Source of the DNA: Candidatus Buchananbacteria bacterium
GTDB taxonomy: Bacteria; Patescibacteriota; Patescibacteriia; CAIXNZ01
DNA length: 35,444 nucleotides
Assembly: GCA_030592165.1 (NCBI GenBank)
Contig: JAUVKC010000001.1
Span: 1-35,444 of the forward strand
Reading direction: 5' to 3'
The position numbers and the translations under genes are program-made. The notes beneath the pieces were generated by a model that saw only the letters and a list, made by a program, of their open reading frames with translations, was not told where the DNA came from and did not search any database. Shown here piece by piece: positions 3,169 to 20,871 of the stretch; positions within the stretch are counted from its first letter, which is position 1; each line of letters starts with the position of its first letter.

Positions 3169-3788
3169 ATTTACCAGATTGGGAAATGGAATCAGGTTTA
3201 TGGCAAAGAGGCTATAAGTACATAGCTGGAATAGACGAAGTTGGCAGGGGAGCTTGGGCAGGGCCGATTGTTGCTGCCGGAGTTATTTTTGCTGAAGAAA
3301 TAGAGATTGAAGGTGTTAAAGATTCAAAAAAACTTAGTGTGAAAAAAAGAACAGAATTAGTTACAATAATTAAGGAAAAAGCATTATCTTGGACTGTTCA
3401 ATCAGTTGAAAATACTAAAATTGATGAAATCGGTGTTGGCAAGGCTAACGCTTTAGTTATTGATAAAGTAATTAATGAATTAAATATTAGACCTGATTAT
3501 GCTTTGATAGACAAAGCTACTGTTATTGAATATAAGATAAAAATACCCTGGGAAACAATAATTAAAGGAGATAATAAGGTTATTTCAATTGCGGCAGCTT
3601 CAATCTTAGCTAAAGATTACCGTGATAATTTGATGATTGAATTGGCTCAAAAATACCCACAATATGGCTTTGATGTACATAAGGGCTATGGTACGAAATT
3701 ACATAAAGAAATGCTTGACGCTCATGATATTTGTGATATTCATCGTAAATCATATAAACCTATCAGCCAAAGACAGTTATTTCAATAA
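3165..3788 (+). CDS. rnhB: Ribonuclease HII
   Basis: 'GIDEVGRGAWAGPIVAA' (DEVGRG catalytic motif), 'DSKKLS' and 'AASILAK'. The ATGA overlap with the tatD stop suggests translational coupling. Confidence 0.9.
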   Translation: MNLPDWEMESGLWQRGYKYIAGIDEVGRGAWAGPIVAAGVIFAEEIEIEGVKDSKKLSVKKRTELVTIIKEKALSWTVQSVENTKIDEIGVGKANALVIDKVINELNIRPDYALIDKATVIEYKIKIPWETIIKGDNKVISIAAASILAKDYRDNLMIELAQKYPQYGFDVHKGYGTKLHKEMLDAHDICDIHRKSYKPISQRQLFQ

Positions 3789-3923
3789 GTTTGAATTTTG
3801 CTTTATATACATTACAAATTTAAAATATAATTGACGAAATATATAATTTAGTGTAAGCTATAGTTGATTTTTATTAAGTTAAAAAATCTCTTTAAAGAGC
3901 TTTTTTATTTTTTTATCAAAATT

Positions 3924-4193
3924 ATGGAAGAAACTGATTCAAAAAATTGGTGGAGAGACCCTGTTATCAAATTTACTGAACTTGGGAGTTGGATTGCCGG
4001 ACCTATTGTTCTGGGTATTTTTTTAGGAAAATGGCTTGATAATAGATATGATACAGAGCCATGGTTATTTTTACTAACAATTGGTCTAGCTTTTGTGATT
4101 TCAATCACAGGATTAGTGAAAAACACAATTGCCTATATGAACCAAATCGATAAATCAAATAATATAAAAAATAATAAAGATGGAAGACAGTAG
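3924..4193 (+). CDS. AtpZ/AtpI-like small membrane protein of the ATP synthase operon
   Basis: 'LGSWIAGPIVLGIFLGKWLDNRYDTEPWLFLLTIGLAF' matches the G..LG.WLD....T.PW pattern of the ATPase_gene1 (AtpZ) family, and it sits immediately upstream of atpB. I prefer the ATG at 3924 over the TTG at 3864 given in the ORF track. Confidence 0.65.
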   Translation: MEETDSKNWWRDPVIKFTELGSWIAGPIVLGIFLGKWLDNRYDTEPWLFLLTIGLAFVISITGLVKNTIAYMNQIDKSNNIKNNKDGRQ

Positions 4194-6496: not shown

Positions 6497-8017
6497 ATGG
6501 CAGATAAAACACATATTATTGAAAGTTTAAAAAAACAAATTGAAGATTTTAAATCCCAAGCAGTTATAGAAAAAGTTGGTAAAGTATTAGAAATTGGTGA
6601 CGGAATCGCCAGAATTTCAGGCCTGTCAGATTGTATGGCTTCAGAAATGATCCAGTTTGAAAACGGAGAAATCGGAGTTGCTTTGAATCTTGAAGAAGAT
6701 TCAATTGGAGCTATAATTTTAGGTGATTATTTGGGAATCAAAGAAGGTGATACAGTCAAAACAACAGGCCAAATATTACAGATACCTGTTGGTGACAATT
6801 TAGTCGGTAGAGTTGTTGATCCTTTGGGTAATGCTTTGGATGGTAAGGGTGAAATATCAACTAAACAATTTTTACCAATTGAAAAAATAGCTCCAGGTGT
6901 AATTACCCGATCATCAGTAAATCAACCTGTACAAACAGGAATAAAAGCGATTGATTCAGTAATTCCAATTGGACGAGGTCAACGAGAATTAATTATTGGA
7001 GATAGACAAACAGGTAAAACAGCCTTAGCAATTGATACGATTATTAATCAAAAAGGATTGAACATGAAATGCGTTTATGTAGCCATTGGTCAAAAAGAAT
7101 CAAAAGTATCAAAGATTATCGCCAAGTTTGAAGAGACCGGAGCTATGGAATATACCACGGTTGTTTTGGCAGGGGCTTCTGATCCAGCTTCTTTGAACTA
7201 TATTGCACCTTATTCTGGTTGTGCAATTGCTGAATATTTCATGGATAAAGGCGAAGATGTTTTAATAGTTTATGATGATTTGTCAAAGCATGCGGTTGCT
7301 TATCGTGAAATATCTCTGCTTTTACGAAGACCGCCAGGACGTGAAGCTTATCCGGGTGATATTTTTTATTTACATTCAAGACTTTTAGAAAGATCAGCCA
7401 AATTAAACAAAGAAAACGGTGGTGGGTCATTAACGGCTTTGCCAATTATTGAGACCCAATCTGGTGATGTTTCCGCCTATATTCCAACTAATGTTATCTC
7501 AATTACAGATGGACAAATCTATCTTGAAGCTGATTTGTTTTATCAGGGTATTAGACCAGCTTTAAATGCCGGTTTGTCAGTTTCTCGTGTTGGTTCAGCT
7601 GCTCAGATTAAAGCTATGAAAAAAGTTGCTGGGAAATTAAAACTTGATTTAGCTCAATATAGAGAATTAGCTGCTTTTGCTCAATTTGGTTCAGATTTAG
7701 ATGAAGGTACAAAAAAACAATTAGAAAGAGGGAAGCGAGTAGTGGAAATCATGAAACAAGATCAATACAAAACAGTAGAGGTTACCAAACAAGTAATTAT
7801 ATTTTACGCGTTAGGTCAGGGTTTGTTAGATGATATACCTGTTGATAAAATTAAAGAATTTGAAGATAAGTTTTATGAATTTTTGGATGTACAGGCAAGT
7901 GATTTGTTGGAATCAATTAAAACTGAGGGTGATTTAACAAAAAAAATAGAAGAAACAATTACCAAGACCGTTAATGATTATAAAGAAACATTAGATTATT
8001 TAATTGTCAAAGAATAA
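6497..8017 (+). CDS. atpA: F-type ATP synthase subunit alpha
   Basis: Walker A 'GDRQTGKT', '[11 protein letters not shown]' and '[25 protein letters not shown]', all typical of alpha subunits. Confidence 0.97.
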
Positions 8018-12797: not shown

Positions 12798-13556
12798 ATG
12801 GAGAAATTTACTATAAAAAATCGTCATGGTTTAAAGATTGTGACCCAATTGGAAAAAGCTGATCAGCCTGCTGGTCTAGCCATTATTTTGCATGGATTAG
12901 GCGGATTTAAAGATCAAGACCATATTGAAGTTTTTGCTCAGTCTTTTAAGGATGCAAATTATACTGTGTTGCGTTATGACGCTACACATTCTTTTGGTGA
13001 AAGTGAAGGGGAGTATAAAGAAGCTACTACAAGCGGATATTATGATGACTTAGAAGATGTAATTGATTGGGCAAAAGATCAGGATTGGTATATTGAACCA
13101 TTTGTTTTGGTTGGACATAGTCTTGGTGGAATTTCAATACTTTTATATGCTGAAAAGTATCCTGATAAAGTTAAAGCCTTAGCCCCCATTTCTACAGTTG
13201 TTTCTGGTGAGTTAATGAAACAAGCTTATGGTGATCAATTAGAGACATGGCAAGAAAAAGGTTTTATTGAAAGACCGTCAGTGTCTAAACCCGGAGAGAT
13301 TAAGATATTAAATTGGAGTTTTGTAGAAGATTTAAAGAATATTGATACCTTTTCTGAAGTAGATAAATTAACTATGCCCGTCTTACTAATTGTTGGTAAT
13401 GTAGATAAATACAAACCCCATTCAAAAATTTTATATGATAAATTACCTGGTCAAAAAGAAATACATATTATAAAGAATGCTCCTCACACTTTTAGAGAAA
13501 AAGAACATTTATACGAGATTAAACAAATATTTGATAAGTGGATTAAGAAATTATGA
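12798..13556 (+). CDS. Alpha/beta-fold hydrolase (serine esterase/lipase-like)
   Basis: Nucleophile elbow 'GHSLGG', oxyanion-region 'ILHGLGG' and a C-terminal 'APHTF' His. SD 'AAGGTGAT' upstream. Confidence 0.85.
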   Translation: MEKFTIKNRHGLKIVTQLEKADQPAGLAIILHGLGGFKDQDHIEVFAQSFKDANYTVLRYDATHSFGESEGEYKEATTSGYYDDLEDVIDWAKDQDWYIEPFVLVGHSLGGISILLYAEKYPDKVKALAPISTVVSGELMKQAYGDQLETWQEKGFIERPSVSKPGEIKILNWSFVEDLKNIDTFSEVDKLTMPVLLIVGNVDKYKPHSKILYDKLPGQKEIHIIKNAPHTFREKEHLYEIKQIFDKWIKKL

Positions 13557-14623
13557 ATAAATACAAAGAACGTTATAAAGCAATAAAATTTCCCCAAGAT
13601 GAACAAAAGCATGATCATGTGATTGAGTGGTGGTATTTTAATGGTAATTTAAAAACAAAAGATGGTCGCTCTTTTTCATACATGAATACTTTATTTTCAG
13701 CAAAACCAAAACAAGTGAAAATACCTTTTTTAAGTAAAATACCTTTAAAAAATTTATATTTTTCTCATTCATTACTGAGTGACAATAATAAAAATAAATT
13801 TTGGCATAAAGTAAACCCAATTTGCTTACTTGATCCAAACAGCTTTACCAAACCATTATTGTGGGCACATTATGATAACGCTTGTTTAATAGAGGAGACA
13901 AGCTTGTTTAATTATCATTTGGTGAATAGGTTTGTTGATTTGAAAATGTCTTTAGTTAAGAAACCTCTTTTATTAAATAAAAAAGGTTTTATAGATTTAA
14001 AAGTAAAAACTACATATTATTATTCTTTAACTCGCTTGGAAACTACTGGGTTGATTAAGGTGAATGATAAATGGTTGGAGGTCTCTGGTTTGTCTTGGAT
14101 GGATCACCAGTGGGCTCAAGGGCCTTTAATCCGTGGAGATAAATGGACTTGGTTCTCAATTCAGTTAGAGGACGGAACAGATATAGTTTGTTTTGTTTAT
14201 GGTGATAAAGAAAAAACTTTTCATGCCAGCTTGATTGATAAAAATAATAGAACAAAATTTACTGATAATGTAGTTTTTAAAACTACTAATAACAAATACA
14301 CTAGTAAAGAAACAGGTTCTGAATATCAATTGGGTTATGAAATTATTATTCCAGACTGGGATGTGAATTTACAGGTTGAACCATTTAATAAAAAACAGGA
14401 AATGGTTTTTGGGACAATTAATTATTGGGAAGGTGGTATGAAAGTAGCGGGCGTGATTAAAAATAAAAAAGTTAAAGGCGATGGATTTATGGAGCTTGTT
14501 GGTTCACCGATGAAAAAAAGTGTTTTTAATGTGTATTTAAAAAAGTTTCGTCAAGAACTTTCAAATCAACCCTGGCAAAGATTAGGTCAGGGAATTAATG
14601 AAAAATTCAAACCATATAAATAG
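13553..14623 (+). CDS. AttH/CrtC-like (lipocalin-like hydratase-fold) protein
   Basis: 'HVIEWWYFNGNL...DGRSFSY' and 'GLSWMDHQWA' match the hallmark EWWY and W.DHQW motifs of the CrtC/AttH family. The ATGA overlap couples it to the hydrolase gene. Confidence 0.75.
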   Translation: MNKYKERYKAIKFPQDEQKHDHVIEWWYFNGNLKTKDGRSFSYMNTLFSAKPKQVKIPFLSKIPLKNLYFSHSLLSDNNKNKFWHKVNPICLLDPNSFTKPLLWAHYDNACLIEETSLFNYHLVNRFVDLKMSLVKKPLLLNKKGFIDLKVKTTYYYSLTRLETTGLIKVNDKWLEVSGLSWMDHQWAQGPLIRGDKWTWFSIQLEDGTDIVCFVYGDKEKTFHASLIDKNNRTKFTDNVVFKTTNNKYTSKETGSEYQLGYEIIIPDWDVNLQVEPFNKKQEMVFGTINYWEGGMKVAGVIKNKKVKGDGFMELVGSPMKKSVFNVYLKKFRQELSNQPWQRLGQGINEKFKPYK

Positions 14624-14707
14624 TCCTTCTTCGCTCCTGTTAGTTTGAATTAAATATACTTGATGTATTATTTATCTGGTCGGAGCTACGAAGGACAAGG
14701 AGGAGAA

Positions 14708-14824
14708 ATGAAAGTAGGGGTTTATGACGAGTTTTTTGAGAGAATGGTATTATTAGCCCGCAGGTTTTGGTTGCCATTAGTGATTGCTGGATTTTTTCAT
14801 TTTATGATTTTATATTGTTGTTAA
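14708..14824 (+). CDS. 38-aa hydrophobic peptide (MKVGVYDEFFERMVLLARRFWLPLVIAGFFHFMILYCC), absent from the supplied ORF track
   Basis: Strong SD AAGGAGGAG (14697-14705) precedes the ATG at 14708. There is one predicted TM helix, the TAA stop is at 14822-14824, and a terminator hairpin starts 6 nt later. Confidence 0.45.
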   Translation: MKVGVYDEFFERMVLLARRFWLPLVIAGFFHFMILYCC

Positions 14825-14862
14825 AAGAAAAGCCGCTTCGTAAAGAAGCGGCTTATTTTTTA
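14823..14862. terminator. Bidirectional rho-independent terminator
   Basis: AAGCCGCTTC-GTAAA-GAAGCGGCTT gives a perfect 10-bp stem (14830-14854). It is flanked by an A-run (AAAAGAAAA) on one side and a T-run (ATTTTTTATTT) on the other. Confidence 0.75.
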
Positions 14863-15121
14863 TTTGGGTATTATAGACGTGATTGCTAAATGTTGATTAC
14901 CCCAATAGACTTAGTATATTTTTAACTATCAATTGATAGTATTATTTTTATGACCGGACACCACAGAAGTGGTGCCCGGTCAATAAGGATGAAAAGTGGC
15001 AATGTGGTAACATGACATTGCCATCGTGGGAAATATTGCAAACTGTTCTTATTAAACAGTAATTTATCTGGCGCCACTTGGTGGCGCCAGAACCATAAGG
15101 GGGACGATTGATGTGGACCTT
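14826..15121 (-). ncRNA. Candidate structured ncRNA of unknown class (core 14952-15121; possible 3' extension to the bidirectional terminator)
   Basis: A GC-rich island in an AT-rich spacer carries four strong hairpins. They are 15068-15090 (10 bp), 15042-15060 (6 bp), 14997-15023 (9 bp) and 14952-14981 (13 bp). The single non-Watson-Crick pair in the 13-bp stem is G-U on the minus strand but A-C on the plus strand. A promoter lies upstream on the minus strand and a terminator downstream. Confidence 0.4.
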
Positions 15122-15126
15122 TGACT

Positions 15127-15155
15127 ATGGTATCAAAATATATCTTTTTTGTCAA
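15127..15155 (-). promoter_or_regulatory. Candidate promoter for the minus-strand RNA
   Basis: On the minus strand: TTGACA (15155-15150), 17-nt spacer ending in TGA (extended -10), then TACCAT (15132-15127). Confidence 0.45.
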
Positions 15156-15267
15156 GTGACTGTTATGTTTTACAACGATTTGTAATGAAATAATTACCTG
15201 ATACGTTATAATTATATTGCTAACTCTTGCAAAATTTATTGATGTATGTTATTATTAGATATTATTT

Positions 15268-16428
15268 ATGAAAACAAAAAAAAATAGAAAGATAGTCCTT
15301 ATTTTACGAATAGCAATAATTGTCTTGTTAGCTTTTTATGGATTTTTGATTCTTAAGGATCCAAAAGTAAAAGATTATTTACAATCAGAGCTTGCAAATA
15401 TTACTGGTGATAAAATTCAAATAAGTTCAGAAAAACAATTGTTGGTTGATTACTTTAATGAATTTTTTAATGTATATAATGAGAAAGATTTCGCTAAATT
15501 AGAAAGATTTTTAGACAATGAAATGGTTCAGTATGTCGGTCTTTCTGAAACAACCTCTACTAAAGTAATAAATAATTTGACTGATTTTTTTGAAAATAAA
15601 GATTATGTTAATTATAAAGCTAATTTTCTTGATTTGAAATATGGAAGAGAAATTGGTTCATATAATATCGAAATCCCAATGACAATTTCTTGGGGTTGGC
15701 AAGAATATGACGAAAAAACTGAATTGAGTTATGCTTATGATAGAGTAGTTGAGGTGATCGCAAAAATTAAATTAAATGAAAATAATAAGATAACAGAGTA
15801 TCATGAAACTAAGGTAATTATACCAAAATTAAAATTATTAAAAGATTTAAGATTAACTGATGATATTATTTTGCAACAAGATACAATAGTTGAAAGTGAA
15901 TTTGTTACAAGAAGTATAGAAGTAGATCCTCCTAAAAGTGAAATGTATTGGCAAAAAATTACCTATAAAGATAAATCTTATTGGTTAGAATCTGGATATT
16001 TTGATAATGAAACAGATTCTATGGTTGATTATTTGCTTAAAATTGATGAAGAAAAAGAAGAATATGAATATTTAAAAAAGATTGAGAGTCCTGATTTAGT
16101 TTTTGAAAAAGGGCTTTTTAAAACAAATGATATCGGTTATGAAATAATGGAGTATAATAAAAAAATTACTGATGATAAATTTGAGATTGATGAATCGTTT
16201 AACTTGAGAATAAAAGCTCCTTATGATAAAAATACAATAATTGAAATGGGGTTGATTACAAGAATTGATGATCAATATTATTCTTTAGATATCTATGAGA
16301 AGGATGATGCTTGGCAACTTATTGAACCATATTATTTGAAAGCGAAATATCAAAAGTTTGATATTGTGTTTATTTTAAATGATGAGAGTAGATATTATAA
16401 TAGTTTTGATCTAGTGAAGTTTGATTAA
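15268..16428 (+). CDS. Hypothetical membrane-anchored protein (N-terminal TM helix, extracytoplasmic body)
   Basis: 386-aa ORF with a 'KKNRKIVLILRIAIIVLLAFYGFLIL' signal anchor. No family recognised; the first ~120 aa may be NTF2-like. Confidence 0.7.
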   Translation: MKTKKNRKIVLILRIAIIVLLAFYGFLILKDPKVKDYLQSELANITGDKIQISSEKQLLVDYFNEFFNVYNEKDFAKLERFLDNEMVQYVGLSETTSTKVINNLTDFFENKDYVNYKANFLDLKYGREIGSYNIEIPMTISWGWQEYDEKTELSYAYDRVVEVIAKIKLNENNKITEYHETKVIIPKLKLLKDLRLTDDIILQQDTIVESEFVTRSIEVDPPKSEMYWQKITYKDKSYWLESGYFDNETDSMVDYLLKIDEEKEEYEYLKKIESPDLVFEKGLFKTNDIGYEIMEYNKKITDDKFEIDESFNLRIKAPYDKNTIIEMGLITRIDDQYYSLDIYEKDDAWQLIEPYYLKAKYQKFDIVFILNDESRYYNSFDLVKFD

Positions 16429-16501
16429 GTTTTATGTAATATTTTTTTAAATACAGCGTTGTATATATAAGTAACATTTTTATTAAATAATAATAATTTA
16501 T

Positions 16502-18571
16502 ATGAGAACAAAAATTACATCTCTAATCATTTTATCAATGGTAATTAGTTTGTTATTTCCAACTGGTTTTGTTTCTGCTGCTTCACTAACAAGCAATGAC
16601 ATATATAAATATACGCCTGGGCAGATAATTGTAAAATTCAGGATAGGTCAAACACCTTTAGATTTAGCTGTGTTAACTGCCGGACAAAGCTTTGTCGGTA
16701 ACCTGGATTTTTCAGGTGAAACAAAAAAAGAGCTATATATGACAGGGCTTTATGAGTTTACGGTTCCTTCCTTAGCATCAAAAAGTGAACCTTTTATTAA
16801 GAGAGCAAAAATTATGATTGATAAACGCCCAGGAGCAAATCGATTTTTTGTCAGAACAAAAGATTTTGGTATTGTTTATGTTTATGTTGATGGTCTTCAA
16901 TATGCTGTAGATTCTTATACTGCAGAGCTTTTAGATTATTTAAATGCTCAGCCAGAGATAGAATATGCAAATGTTGATTATAGCTATGAAGCGTTAATTC
17001 CAATTGATTCAGATGGCAATTCAAGTCCCCAGATTATTCCTGAAGGAGTTTTGGAAATTTCAGAGGTGGAAGCTCTTGGTTTTAATTTAAAATCTAATCC
17101 GGCCTGTACTTTTGCAGTAAATGGAACTGGCTTGACTGGAGATATTGCTATTACTGACAATGAAGATGGGCAAGGTGACGGTCAAATAAATCAATATGAT
17201 GTAGAGGCACTTAGAAAAATGCTTTCAATGAAAATACCTTCTTCAATTTGTGCTGATTTTGATCAGGACACCATTGTTAGTTCATCTGATTATTCTATGA
17301 CTTTGCTAATGATTAATGAATTAAATAAAATAAGGATAGAAAGTCCTGCTAATACTACTCAAGAAGATCCATATTTATGTGTTGCAGGTGATTATGATTA
17401 TGATATGACGTTAAATAATCAGGATTTAGAAAATGTGTTTCAAGTTTTAAATCAAAATGAAGATTTTAGATTTAGTGCTGATTATAATGGAGATCAAAAG
17501 ATTACAGTCAATGATTATTTAATGATGAAAGTTGCTTTAACGAAAACTGGCGGAACAGTTTTTTATACTCCTAGTAATCAAGAATCGTGTAGTTTTCCGC
17601 GTGGAATTATGGTTCTTGGTGATGAAATAGAAATTGAAAATAATTCAGGTGCAGTTGTATATGATCAAGATATTTATGGAGATAAATTAGTTTGGAATGA
17701 TAATGAGGCTGGTAAATATCAAATTTATGAATATGATTTTGCAACTAGTCAAACTAATTTAGTATCAAATAATTTAAGTAGCCAATTTCAGTATAAACCA
17801 GCTGTTTCACAGGATAAGATTGTTTGGTCAGATGGTAGAAATGCTGCTGCAAATATATACATGTACGACATTAATACTGGTCTTGAAACTCAAGTTGGGT
17901 TTGATAAACCAGCTTTAAGTGGTCAATGGCTTCCAGATGTTGATGGTAACTATGTTGTCTGGGTTGAGGATATAGCTGGTCAAAATTTTAGTTCACAGTA
18001 CCTACCAGCTCATAGCGAGGTATATTTGTATGATATAAATACAGGCTTAAGTGGTCAGCTTAGTCCTAATTTATCTGGACCAACCACTCCTAAAGTTTAT
18101 GGAAATAATGTTATTTTCACTGATTTTAATCCTAATACAGGCAAAAGTGATTTGTATTATCATAATATAAATGCTCAATCAGGATTATCAGGTCAGTCTG
18201 TCCCATTACTTACGAATTTATCAGGTTACGCGTCACCAGATTTATATGGTAGTAATGTTGTTTGGGATGTAAATTCAGGTGTATATTTTTACGACTTGAA
18301 TTTAAGTGGACAAAGTAAAAGATTAGCAGATTATCCTTATAGTTCGGAATATCAGTCAGATATTTATAACGATTACGTTGTCTACGCAGGCACAAAAATG
18401 TATAATGAAGATATATTTTTATATGATTTGACTACTGATCGGAATTATCAAATTACTACAAATTTAAGCAATCAATTTAATCCAGTAATTTATGGTGATA
18501 AGATTATTTGGCAACATATTGGAGGATTTGCAGATTACAACTTATCGTATAGAACATTTTACATTTATTAA
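16502..18571 (+). CDS. Secreted protein: subtilase-prodomain-like N-terminal module, two dockerin-like modules, C-terminal beta-propeller repeats
   Basis: Signal peptide ('GFVSA-AS'). Four D-x-[DN]-x-D-x-x-[IL]-x-x-x-D calcium-loop repeats at ~17154-17545: 'GDGQINQYDVEAL', 'DFDQDTIVSSSDY', 'DYDYDMTLNNQDL' and 'DYNGDQKITVNDY'. At least seven repeats of the pattern 'Y/SGD/N-K/N-[IV]VW-D'. Confidence 0.8.
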   Translation: MRTKITSLIILSMVISLLFPTGFVSAASLTSNDIYKYTPGQIIVKFRIGQTPLDLAVLTAGQSFVGNLDFSGETKKELYMTGLYEFTVPSLASKSEPFIKRAKIMIDKRPGANRFFVRTKDFGIVYVYVDGLQYAVDSYTAELLDYLNAQPEIEYANVDYSYEALIPIDSDGNSSPQIIPEGVLEISEVEALGFNLKSNPACTFAVNGTGLTGDIAITDNEDGQGDGQINQYDVEALRKMLSMKIPSSICADFDQDTIVSSSDYSMTLLMINELNKIRIESPANTTQEDPYLCVAGDYDYDMTLNNQDLENVFQVLNQNEDFRFSADYNGDQKITVNDYLMMKVALTKTGGTVFYTPSNQESCSFPRGIMVLGDEIEIENNSGAVVYDQDIYGDKLVWNDNEAGKYQIYEYDFATSQTNLVSNNLSSQFQYKPAVSQDKIVWSDGRNAAANIYMYDINTGLETQVGFDKPALSGQWLPDVDGNYVVWVEDIAGQNFSSQYLPAHSEVYLYDINTGLSGQLSPNLSGPTTPKVYGNNVIFTDFNPNTGKSDLYYHNINAQSGLSGQSVPLLTNLSGYASPDLYGSNVVWDVNSGVYFYDLNLSGQSKRLADYPYSSEYQSDIYNDYVVYAGTKMYNEDIFLYDLTTDRNYQITTNLSNQFNPVIYGDKIIWQHIGGFADYNLSYRTFYIY

Positions 18572-18585
18572 AATAATTTAATTAA

Positions 18586-20553
18586 ATGACAGATAAGTTC
18601 ATTAATAAAGTAATAGTATTTTTAGTAGGATTAGTATTTGTCATTTTACCGATATTAATAAACCCCTTGGGATTTAGTGTCTTCGCACTCCCAAGGGTGT
18701 TTTTTTTGTATTTAGTTAGTCTTGTCTTACTTGTCTTAATTCTTTACCAAAACTTAAAAAAGAAAAATATTAAGATTGAGTATAATATTTTTCATTTATT
18801 ATCTTTAGTTTTTTTATTTTTTATAGTTGTATCGGTTGTTTTTTCTAAACATAAATATACAGCATTATGGGGTTATGATGCCGATTATGAAGGCTTGTTT
18901 ACCTGGCTATCGTATTTATTCTTTTTCTTAATCGGTTATCTATATTTTAGAAACGAAAAATCAATAAAATATTTATTTGCTAGTTTGGCAATCACAAGTC
19001 TTCTGGTTAGCGTCTACGCGATTTTGCAGTATTTTTTTGATTGGCAATTAATGGATTGGGTACAAAAAACTGAAATAGCCAGAGCATCTTCTTTTTTGGG
19101 TCATCCAAACTATTTAGCAGGTTATTATATCTTAATTTTGCCTTTGATTTATTTTTTAATTCAACAAAGATATTTTAAATTCTGGTTACAAGTAGGTTTG
19201 CGTTTGGTATTTGCTTTAGGGGTAGTAAGTTTAGTTTTAACTTTTTCAAGAGCAGGTTGGCTAACATTTATTTTAATGTTATTTATATCCGGGGTAATTT
19301 ATAATAAAAAATTAATTATAAGTTATAAAAAGAATACTAAAGCTTATTTGCTAAGTTTTTTTATATTAATCATAGTATCTTTGTCTGTGATAATTGCGTT
19401 TGATGTTTTTAGTTTAGTTGCTGATCGTTTTATGTCTATTTTTGACAGCAATACGGCTTCAACAAAAGTTAGGGTATTATTATATATCCAAAGTTTGAAT
19501 TTACTTAAAAATAATTTTTTATTTGGTATTGGTCCTGATAATTTCGCATATATTATACCGCAATATTTTTTACCTGCTTGGGGTATTTATACAGGAGCTG
19601 TTGCTGACAAAGCGCATAATCAGATTTTAGACTATTGGGTAAGTTTTGGAATTTTCGGTTTACTTAGTTATTTGAGTATTATTGTTTTTTGGATTTATAA
19701 AATGATTACTAGTATAAAAAATAAATTAGCTGATGAAAAGGAATTATTAATAATGATCTTTTTATCAGTAATTGGATATTTATTTTTCGTACAAATAAAT
19801 TATACAACTATTGAGCTAGCACCAATATTATGGTTTTTAATCGGTTTGGGGGTTTATAATATTTATCGTATTGGTTTGTTGAAGTCTTGGAAATTTGAGA
19901 TTAAATTTGATCAAGCAAACTTGAGATTATTTGTTCATTTGGTCACTGTAGTGACATTAGTTGGATTATTAATTGGCCTAGTTTTAACTGGATATAAGAA
20001 AATTGCTGCTGATTATTATTTTGTGAAATCATTAAAAGCTTCTGAATTAAATGAATCAATTCATTATAATGAAAAAGCTATTAATTATGATCCTTATTTG
20101 ACTAGTTATTATTTGAATTTAAATCATAGATTAGTTAGCTTGGGAGAATTGTCTGGAGATTATAGTTATTTTGATAAGGCAATAGCAAATTTAAATTATG
20201 CTTATAATTATTTACCATTAGAATATAGGATTCATTATCAACAAGGTGAAACTTATTTAAAATTAGTACAATATGCTCAAACTAAAGATTATTTATATCA
20301 AAAAGCAAAGTTATCTTATTTGCAAACATTAAATTTATATCCAAACTCAGTTGAAAGCCATTTGAAATTAGGAGTGATTTTGGCAGAACTTGGTAATGAT
20401 GATCAGGCTATAGATTATTGGCTTAAATGTCTGGAGCTAAATAATCAACAAGAAAAATGTTTGTATAATTTATCCGTAATTCACAGTAAGGTGGGCCAGC
20501 AAGAATTAGCAAATGAATTTCTAGATAAATATAATCAAATTAAAAACCACTAA
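18586..20553 (+). CDS. O-antigen ligase/polymerase-like (Wzy_C) polytopic membrane protein with C-terminal TPR repeats
   Basis: More than 10 TM helices, 'FSRAGWLTF' and 'DKAHNQILDYWVSFGIFGL' (O-antigen-ligase-type loop). The C-terminal ~200 aa carry TPR-like repeats ('AKLSYLQTLNLYPNSVESHLKLGVILAELGNDDQAIDYWLKCLELNN'). Confidence 0.85.
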   Translation: MTDKFINKVIVFLVGLVFVILPILINPLGFSVFALPRVFFLYLVSLVLLVLILYQNLKKKNIKIEYNIFHLLSLVFLFFIVVSVVFSKHKYTALWGYDADYEGLFTWLSYLFFFLIGYLYFRNEKSIKYLFASLAITSLLVSVYAILQYFFDWQLMDWVQKTEIARASSFLGHPNYLAGYYILILPLIYFLIQQRYFKFWLQVGLRLVFALGVVSLVLTFSRAGWLTFILMLFISGVIYNKKLIISYKKNTKAYLLSFFILIIVSLSVIIAFDVFSLVADRFMSIFDSNTASTKVRVLLYIQSLNLLKNNFLFGIGPDNFAYIIPQYFLPAWGIYTGAVADKAHNQILDYWVSFGIFGLLSYLSIIVFWIYKMITSIKNKLADEKELLIMIFLSVIGYLFFVQINYTTIELAPILWFLIGLGVYNIYRIGLLKSWKFEIKFDQANLRLFVHLVTVVTLVGLLIGLVLTGYKKIAADYYFVKSLKASELNESIHYNEKAINYDPYLTSYYLNLNHRLVSLGELSGDYSYFDKAIANLNYAYNYLPLEYRIHYQQGETYLKLVQYAQTKDYLYQKAKLSYLQTLNLYPNSVESHLKLGVILAELGNDDQAIDYWLKCLELNNQQEKCLYNLSVIHSKVGQQELANEFLDKYNQIKNH

Positions 20554-20579: not shown

Positions 20580-20780
20580 CTAGTTGAAATTTATTTGATA
20601 TTCACAGTCCTTGTGAGGACAAATAAACGTATCTCCTGATCTTACAATTATAAATCCCTGATCAATGAGTTTATTTCTTTGTGCACCTTGAATTGGATTT
20701 TTAGAGGAATCTTCGATAATATTTAGATCTCCACCACAGCCTGGACACTTGTGTATTTCTTTTAAAAATTTTTCCGGCAT
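20580..20780 (-). CDS. Small zinc-ribbon protein (66 aa)
   Basis: 'CPGCGG' and 'CPHKDC' give a four-Cys ribbon. Strong SD (AAAGGAGGAGAAAATCTA-ATG) on the minus strand. It is the only confident minus-strand CDS in the window. Confidence 0.65.
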   Translation of the reverse strand: MPEKFLKEIHKCPGCGGDLNIIEDSSKNPIQGAQRNKLIDQGFIIVRSGDTFICPHKDCEYQINFN

Positions 20781-20871
20781 TAGATTTTCTCCTCCTTTTA
20801 TCTATATTTTACACAAATTTTGAACATTGTCAAGCTTTTTTTAAATCTTGATTTAGTGTAAAATAAGCATA

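Follow-up and report, generated by a model that had tools for sequence, protein, structure and literature searches.

The window analysed here, a 35,444-nucleotide (nt) contig (C71) of a Candidatus Buchananbacteria bacterium, probably carries a stand-alone gene for a structured small RNA (sRNA) on its minus strand, a member of an uncatalogued and lineage-restricted family whose transcription we infer from the sequence. The locus, a spacer of 640 nt, is flanked by an AttH/CrtC-like lipocalin gene (13553-14623) and by an orphan gene for a membrane-anchored protein of 386 amino acids (aa; 15268-16428). Transcription would begin at a promoter of the form TTGACA-17-TGnTACCAT, with a predicted start near 15120, and would run to a terminator at 14830-14854, which would give an RNA of about 295 nt. 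This RNA would be built of two tandem modules (H4 with H3, and H1 with a palindrome), in each of which an A-rich linker joins a long GC-rich clamp hairpin to a small AU-rich one. Hairpin H2 and short pyrimidine-rich single-stranded segments would lie between the two modules. In the direction of the proposed transcription the features are as follows.

15155-15127, minus strand: sigma-70-type promoter TTGACA-17 nt-(TG)-TACCAT, 10/12 consensus positions, with an extended -10.
15092-15120, minus strand: 5' leader with the pyrimidine-rich stretch GUCCCCCUUAUGG, mostly unpaired or weakly paired in the fold.
15067-15077/15081-15091, minus strand: hairpin H4, a perfect, GC-rich stem of 11 base pairs (bp) with the loop CAA.
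15042-15047/15055-15060, minus strand: small hairpin H3, ACUGUU(U)-loop-(G)AACAGU, 6 bp plus a seventh pair that is U.G on the minus strand.
15024-15041, minus strand: linker UUGCAAUAUUUCCCACGA, single-stranded in the fold.
14997-15005/15015-15023, minus strand: hairpin H2, a perfect stem of 9 bp with a 9-nt loop.
14983-14996, minus strand: pyrimidine-rich linker CUUUUCAUCCUUAU, unpaired in the fold and proposed as seed.
14951-14964/14969-14982, minus strand: hairpin H1, 14 bp with the loop UUCU and a single mismatch (minus strand G.U, plus strand A.C).
14925-14940, minus strand: 16-nt palindrome ACTATCAATTGATAGT, as RNA a 6-bp hairpin CUAUCA-AUUG-UGAUAG.
14864-14905, minus strand: H0, a TTGGGGTA/TACCCAA stem, which forms a weak 5-bp helix with a 27-nt loop.
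14830-14854, both strands: bidirectional intrinsic terminator, 3' end of the candidate RNA and of a convergent 38-aa peptide gene.

Most of these elements had been described in a previous sequence-only reading of the window. All four near-perfect hairpins, the minus-strand promoter, the 16-nt palindrome and the bidirectional terminator were located, and the mismatch of the last stem, which had been read as G-U on the minus and A-C on the plus strand, is borne out in H1. The TTGGGGTA/TACCCAA stem is present, but weak. Likewise, the island described as sharply GC-enriched is modestly enriched, with a G+C content in 100-nt windows of 0.37-0.46 versus 0.20-0.28 in the flanks and 0.316 in the genome, but the wording was too strong since many coding stretches of the genome are equally GC-rich.

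The folding of the locus far exceeds that of dinucleotide shuffles, with minus-strand z-scores of -9.4 and -10.7 in two computations and a plus-strand z-score of -9.3. Each arm of H4 contains the palindrome TGGCGCCA. The stems of H1-H4 lack internal loops, and the loops, from H4 to H1, read CAA, AAUAA, CAUGUUACC and UUCU. None of these four hairpins is followed by a U-run on either strand, and none is therefore a terminator; the only stretch qualifying as an intrinsic terminator is 14830-14854. Genome-wide, 162 perfect hairpins were found (perfect stem of at least 9 bp with at least 4 GC pairs), mostly terminators with A/T runs inside the stem, and only at this locus do at least three of them fall within 300 nt across the 0.98-Mb genome. 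The 261-nt core is a single-copy sequence that matches itself alone in the genome, and each of its hairpins is unlike the others.

A DNA search with this core in 60 related genomes returned AT-rich chance matches only. The 386-aa protein downstream had no relative among 5.8 billion proteins and was thus not usable as an anchor of the locus. Therefore, the AttH-like neighbour was chosen, and the loci of relatives (L numbers) were collected by the identity of their AttH-like protein to the window copy, namely L041 (88%), L042 (76%), L046 (72%), L045, L047 and L049 (70-72%) and about 150 further loci from metagenomes and genomes. An exact-sequence database look-up of both proteins flanking the spacer gave no record. 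The contig of L041 (Ga0675942_0004856) ends 474 nt past the AttH-like gene, at this locus and 24 nt upstream of its first hairpin, and in a UvrD search to extend it no match exceeded 71%.

Past the terminator, L041, L042 and L046 no longer match the window in sequence but keep its architecture. All three have a hairpin-dense stretch that is convergent with a conserved gene for a peptide of about 38 aa, with a minus-strand promoter before it and a terminator after it. On the minus strand of L042, TTGACA-17-TATACT (11/12) precedes about 200 nt of hairpins and a bidirectional terminator. L046 shows TTGACA-18-TAAAAT (11/12), about 320 nt of hairpins and a terminator of its own (GACCCGCGAAACCTTGCGGGTC followed by T6) that functions on paper on the minus strand only. 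In both loci the best promoter match, with a perfect TTGACA, lies on the minus strand directly upstream of the hairpins. In L041 the minus-strand promoter match is weaker (9/12, with TG) and is accompanied by hairpins and minus-strand terminators; this locus carries CCUAAUGCUU in place of the window's CCUUAUGGUU directly before the first hairpin, and a long-loop hairpin (7231-7283) at the position matching H0. The bidirectional terminator is conserved in L041 with a compensatory change from G-C to A-U and is also present in L042.

What these loci have in common is a module which on the minus strand comprises a GC-rich hairpin, an A-rich linker, a small ACUGUUU...AAACAGU hairpin and then an UUAAGC-like sequence. 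Two copies are found in the window (H4+H3 and H1+palindrome) and also two in L041. H3 is the piece of the module with the highest sequence conservation, with counterparts at 3773-3790 in L042, 1914-1932 in L046 and 7293-7308 in L041. A covariance model (R2) made from the module of L042 alone matched three times on the minus strand.

Window 14914-14981, minus strand: 34.3 bits, E=2e-7.
L046 1905-1970, minus strand: 17.8 bits, E=0.009.
Window 15031-15092, minus strand: 14.5 bits, E=0.08.

R2 aligns H1 of the window with GGACACAGAC-UUCG-GUCUGUGUCC of L042 and the 16-nt palindrome with the small H3-type hairpin of L042. Since the palindrome falls on the small hairpin of the module, it is more likely, as far as the model goes, to be the RNA hairpin of the second module than an operator. 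In an alignment of six rows each of the 88 cells pairs, and both sides are changed in 13 of the 17 pairs; none of 500 shuffles reached this level, and slid controls paired in 39-48% of cells. Where the sequence-only reading had looked to related genomes for conservation and covariation, the two-hairpin module thus recurs with compensatory changes. Given a small set and an alignment that had been fitted to the structure, we take the covariation as support, not proof. A MAFFT alignment did not hold the hairpins in register. We also considered H3 as a LexA box (CTGT-N8-ACAG near uvrD) and rejected this, as relatives show spacings anywhere between 6 and 9.

Several observations agree with the minus strand, to which the RNA had already been assigned from the letters of the window. 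Besides the promoters of the relatives and the minus-only terminator of L046, the minus strand has the more negative z-score in six of six related stretches (L046 -9.7 vs -4.9, L041 -13.2 vs -7.4). Near-perfect stems of the window (H1 and H3), L041 (two) and L137 (one) contain five single mismatches in total, and every one reads G.U on the minus strand but A.C on the plus strand, an outcome with a chance of about 1/16. Moreover, the H1 homologue of L042 has a UUCG loop on the minus strand. In L042 a plus-strand promoter would have no space, as the hairpins start 2 nt past a plus-strand terminator.

Other results weigh against a minus-strand RNA gene. The -10 hexamer TACCAT is imperfect, and all 27 open reading frames (ORFs) of at least 100 aa in the window lie on the plus strand. 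The plus strand of the locus also folds far beyond chance, with lower absolute energy. Counted over whole predicted folds, G.U pairs do not discriminate between the strands (28/398 on the minus, 42/428 on the plus strand). H3 of L046 scores as a plus-strand terminator, and the window has a plus-strand ORF of 24 aa, not conserved, that is led by a Shine-Dalgarno (SD) sequence. With regard to conservation, loci with an AttH identity of 70% or less mostly lack the hairpin cluster, the module is carried by four or five sequences only, and the covariation is partly circular in that the alignment was fitted to the model structure and matches were partly chosen for pairing. A single-sequence covariance model of H4-H1 (R1) gave chance-level matches only in 400 genomes of the class; its best match in L041 lies on the other strand, as palindromic hairpins can be aligned in both orientations. 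R2 found nothing real across 13 family genomes, a search that also missed the 34-bit match of the window itself, and its first-pass filter was thus too coarse. The one full-length R2 match, in L233, was rejected, as it lies inside a coding region and has no AttH, peptide or UvrD match.

Searches for known RNA classes bear out that no class could be recognised from the sequence. Rfam 15 gave no match at gathering score in the whole window. At E<=10, the region 14600-15300 gave weak matches on the terminator (at most 25.5 bits vs cut-offs of 41-134) and H1-H4 stayed uncovered. The loci of relatives had no Rfam match either, and among 20 GC-rich islands of the genome only 16S rRNA and tRNAs were matched. 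The sequence-only reading had also been unable to match the RNA by eye to transfer-messenger RNA (tmRNA), RNase P RNA, signal recognition particle (SRP) RNA or 6S RNA, and this holds for all four. The tmRNA lies on contig C89 (ARAGORN) and RNase P RNA on contig C32 at 161 bits; accordingly, the locus is not the genome's copy of either. Domain IV of SRP RNA is a GNRA-capped helix with conserved symmetric and asymmetric internal loops that bind Ffh; SRP RNA models had no match on the locus at E<=10, and H1-H4 lack the internal loops of domain IV. 6S RNA is a single long irregular hairpin with a large central bubble; its model did not match the locus at E<=10 either, and the fold is a row of independent local hairpins. 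A literature search found no paper on sRNAs of these bacteria.

The models of small (RF00169) and large (RF01854) SRP RNA found no match in the source assembly (G000) and the 13 family genomes (G001-G013), several of which are 100% complete, whereas control genomes gave matches. Either this lineage has a very divergent SRP RNA, or the first-pass filter of the search missed it. An island of about 500 nt with 55% G+C on another contig (C58:20689-21216) has no Rfam match at gathering score and contains AGGUCAGGAACUGAGCAAG, faintly reminiscent of SRP domain IV.

With its single-copy core and as the sole hairpin cluster, the locus also does not belong to the repetitive extragenic palindromic (REP) elements or miniature inverted-repeat transposable elements. 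Elsewhere the genome contains REP-like long perfect hairpins with a shared (C)TGTAGGYG / GTAGG motif near the stem base and often 4-nt loops (AGCT, TCGG), at C68:8574-8634, C85:4745-4797, C31:5894-5927, C32:11486-11553, C35:2068-2105 and C74:5842-5873. L136 holds a similar GTAGAGACGCGG hairpin, and this GTAGG family recalls REP elements with a GTAG tetranucleotide.

The source assembly has 975,808 bp in 103 contigs, is 95.7% complete and has 31.6% G+C. Named relatives of the window proteins belong to Candidatus Buchananbacteria, Falkowbacteria and Parcubacteria, which places the source organism among the ultra-small bacteria of the candidate phyla radiation (Patescibacteria). Four short reading frames in the window bear on the interpretation.

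14922-15155, minus strand: 77-aa ORF, starting at the TTG of the -35 hexamer, no SD.
15111-15185, plus strand: 24-aa ORF MWTFDYGIKIYLFCQVTVMFYNDL, with a near-ideal SD AAGGGGGA, a spacing of 6 nt and ATG; antisense to the predicted 5' end of the RNA.
14708-14824, plus strand: 38-aa membrane-peptide gene, RRFWLPLVIAGFFHF / MKVGVYDEFFERMVLLARRFWLPLVIAGFFHFMILYCC, SD AAGGAGGAG; convergent with the candidate RNA, a neighbour and not part of it.
About 20590-20783, minus strand: unlisted gene for a zinc-ribbon protein of about 64 aa, CPGC...CPHKDC, SD AAAGGAGGAG and a TTGACA promoter; divergent from uvrD.

The 77-aa ORF had been suspected to be an artefact of the hairpins, and in line with this it had no Pfam match, and neither 190 related loci nor the rest of the genome contained a relative. 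The 24-aa ORF, conserved neither in relatives nor elsewhere in its own genome, is probably spurious, and its lack of conservation led us to reject it as a type I toxin. An SD-led gene for the 38-aa peptide, with the motif RFWLPL..IH, stands behind the AttH-like gene in the loci of many relatives. We read it as a real small gene that falls below usual length cut-offs, and the peptide is probably a partner of AttH rather than a toxin.

Between the spacer and uvrD (20872) the window contains three genes (15268-20553) encoding the 386-aa orphan, a 689-aa dockerin protein and a 655-aa Wzy_C/TPR protein, followed by the zinc-ribbon gene. In L042, L049 and L236 uvrD adjoins the spacer directly, and in L045 a minus-strand zinc-ribbon gene alone lies between them. 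The three-gene block looks like a lineage-specific insertion. The layout of the window's zinc-ribbon gene is homologous to that of the 64-aa gene of L045 (8149-8343), and the promoter region of the window RNA is 63% identical over 126 nt to the zinc-ribbon promoter region of L045.

Larger structured stretches without an Rfam match, each running from a promoter to a terminator, were seen in four relatives.

L057, about 3560-3740, minus strand.
L137, about 3610-4010, minus strand.
L046, 1715-2030, minus strand.
L134, about 3740-4060, minus strand.

L057 (69%), L137 (70%) and L134 contain GC-rich stretches of 300-480 nt with long-range stems. L057 and L137 have a common domain closed by GGG(C/U)CGCU...AGCG(G/A)CCC, with a compensatory change between them, and in both the structured stretch lies directly downstream of, and on the same strand as, a zinc-ribbon gene (CxxC...CPxC) of about 65-100 aa. 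A stem GGGCGGCGCCUGC...GCAGGCGCCGCCC of 13-16 bp is found in L057, L137 and L046, shortened in L041 and missing from the window, where H4 (CUGGCGCCAC) may be a remnant of it. The pattern GGGCGGCGCCTGC matched in 6 of 13 family genomes and in none of the controls; over 400 genomes its matches outside the family did not rise above the controls. L132 and L236 have shorter versions (about 100 nt) whose 5' part is CU-rich. In our reading, the stretches of L057, L137, L046 and L134 are larger relatives of the window RNA. As AttH loci at or below 70% identity mostly lack the hairpin cluster, the family is narrow and fast-evolving.

An extended version of this idea seems rather doubtful to us. It would make the window RNA the smallest member of an undescribed, fast-evolving modular RNA family of about 100-480 nt in one lineage of Patescibacteria (Buchananbacteria/Falkowbacteria-like), located between the AttH-peptide operon and the zinc-ribbon gene or uvrD. 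Its larger members would keep GGGCGGCGCCUGC...GCAGGCGCCGCCC and CU-rich, anti-SD-like loops, and the RNA would either form a ribonucleoprotein with the zinc-ribbon protein or mimic the 3' end of 16S rRNA and titrate ribosome-binding sites.

For an sRNA located between the AttH-peptide operon and the uvrD region in its closest relatives (Buchananbacteria/Falkowbacteria-like Patescibacteria), the following mechanism can be proposed. The stable hairpins would shield the unpaired segments UCCCCCUUAU, AUAUUUCCCAC and UUUUCAUCCUUAU and present them for pairing with purine-rich SD regions of target mRNAs. The unpaired segments of the window are rich in pyrimidines (GUCCCCCUUAU, AUAUUUCCCAC, UUUUCAUCCUUAU), and loops and linkers of relatives contain similar CU-rich stretches or CCUCC; both point to pairing with purine-rich ribosome-binding sites. 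Stretches like the CUUUUCAUCCUUAU linker occur in L041 (CUUCAUCCUAUUUUCUUCUUCUU), L132 and L236; AUAUUUCCC is also present in the loop of the long stem of L137, a resemblance only. In Firmicutes, C-rich motifs of RsaE/RoxS and RNAIII pair with SD regions. A k-mer search for a strictly conserved unpaired motif across the family found none, which weakens the case for seed pairing. Provided that the RNA is real, trans-acting base pairing is the mechanism that we favour most, as a tentative proposal that we hold to be somewhat short of probable.

Other explanations dispense with a minus-strand RNA gene. The hairpins could be palindromes acting at the DNA level, as a scar or hotspot bordering a variable region, as a cruciform or single-stranded DNA site for a recombinase or an HUH-type enzyme, or as protein-binding sites. 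The core GGCGCC/GGCACC that the hairpins share might be one of these sites, hairpins this perfect are unusual in a functional RNA, and the stem GGGCGGCGCCUGC is conserved as sequence beyond pairing in L046, L057 and L137. The locus also borders the block 15268-20553 that is missing in relatives whose spacer abuts uvrD, the contig of L041 breaks exactly here, and the genome has its separate GTAGG hairpin family. The G.T wobble asymmetry would be equally expected for hairpins of single-stranded DNA. However, the sequence is single-copy with mutually different hairpins, no transposase, integrase or reverse transcriptase lies nearby, a promoter and a terminator on the same strand flank the stretch in four genomes, and the model matches are strand-specific in their A-rich linkers and loops. 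On balance we consider palindromes without an RNA function unlikely. Even less probable, in our view, is a plus-strand 5' leader of the downstream genes, with a promoter at 14893-14920, the palindrome as operator and the hairpins masking the SD of the 24-aa leader ORF ahead of the 386-aa gene. A TTGATT-16-TATATT sequence lies at 14893-14920 with the palindrome 5 nt downstream, the SD AAGGGGGA is good and is paired in the plus-strand fold, the surrounding genes are all on the plus strand, and H3 of L046 can be read as a plus-strand terminator. Yet the promoter reaches just 9/12, the 24-aa ORF is not conserved, the hairpin core has no match to an Rfam riboswitch or leader, and the palindrome aligns with the RNA hairpin of the module. 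Furthermore, the module is kept while the downstream genes vary (the 386-aa orphan here, uvrD in L042, a 198-aa gene in L046), and L042 offers no space for a promoter on that strand.

Two further explanations accept the RNA and assign it another role. It could be the cis-antisense partner of the convergent 38-aa peptide gene, similar to type I toxin-antitoxin systems such as par/Fst-RNA II, or it could insulate convergent transcription by the shared terminator. The RNA indeed converges on an SD-led peptide gene, with a bidirectional terminator common to both in the window, L041 and L042, and a 13/16 direct repeat (14780-14795, 14879-14894) adds complementarity. However, by our estimate chance alone would produce a 9-nt seed repeat within 120 nt about 0.3-0.8 times in the spacer, and the bulk of the RNA, H1-H4, is not complementary to the peptide mRNA. 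The peptide is syntenic behind AttH family-wide, even where the hairpin cluster is missing (L049, L131, L132, L134, L055), unlike a sporadic toxin, and in L046 the RNA has its own terminator, so that the two transcripts do not overlap. Both findings weaken the toxin-antitoxin reading, and we give this explanation as a whole little credence. It is similarly improbable that the RNA binds a protein or serves as a scaffold instead of base-pairing. A possible partner would be the small zinc-ribbon protein, whose gene directly precedes the larger RNA versions on the same strand in L057 and L137, is driven by the equivalent minus-strand promoter in L045 and is present in the window at about 20590-20783; the conserved stem sequence GGGCGGCGCC suggests sequence-specific recognition. 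This gene, though, is not adjacent to the RNA in the window or in L042, the GGGCGGCGCC stem is not in the window, and RNA binding by this zinc-ribbon protein is conjecture.

RNA-based regulation in the candidate phyla radiation is almost unknown, and these tiny genomes have few recognisable regulators. A stand-alone sRNA gene at this position would be an RNA family missed by current catalogues, and a structured RNA that is kept at one locus while compensatory change rewrites its stems would provide a concrete, testable example. The practical value is modest given the narrow family and the simple copy in the window; the missing SRP RNA match in all 14 family genomes is perhaps of wider use.

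Among known systems, clusters of REP elements and bacterial interspersed mosaic elements likewise place several GC-rich, near-perfect hairpins side by side in intergenic regions, whereas the window locus is single-copy, with differing hairpins, no GTAG motif and a promoter of its own. OLE, ROOL, GOLLD and the raiA motif are comparable as GC-rich, heavily folded RNAs in an AT-rich genome, especially to the versions of 300-480 nt with long-range stems (L046, L057, L137). The window copy differs from them in being small, with simple local hairpins, no Rfam match and an occurrence in few genera only. With par/Fst RNA II and type I antitoxins the candidate shares the convergent arrangement with an SD-led gene for a hydrophobic peptide and a common bidirectional terminator. 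In contrast to par/Fst RNA II, the peptide is syntenic family-wide, the overlap is limited to the terminator and one 13/16 repeat and is absent from L046, and the RNA, with about 295 nt and seven hairpins, is far larger than needed. RsaE/RoxS and RNAIII-type sRNAs differ in that their Rfam models do not match and that the pyrimidine segments of the window family are not strictly conserved. They resemble the candidate as stand-alone units from promoter to terminator without an ORF, in which stable hairpins are combined with pyrimidine-rich single strands, a likeness that is offered here as functional speculation.

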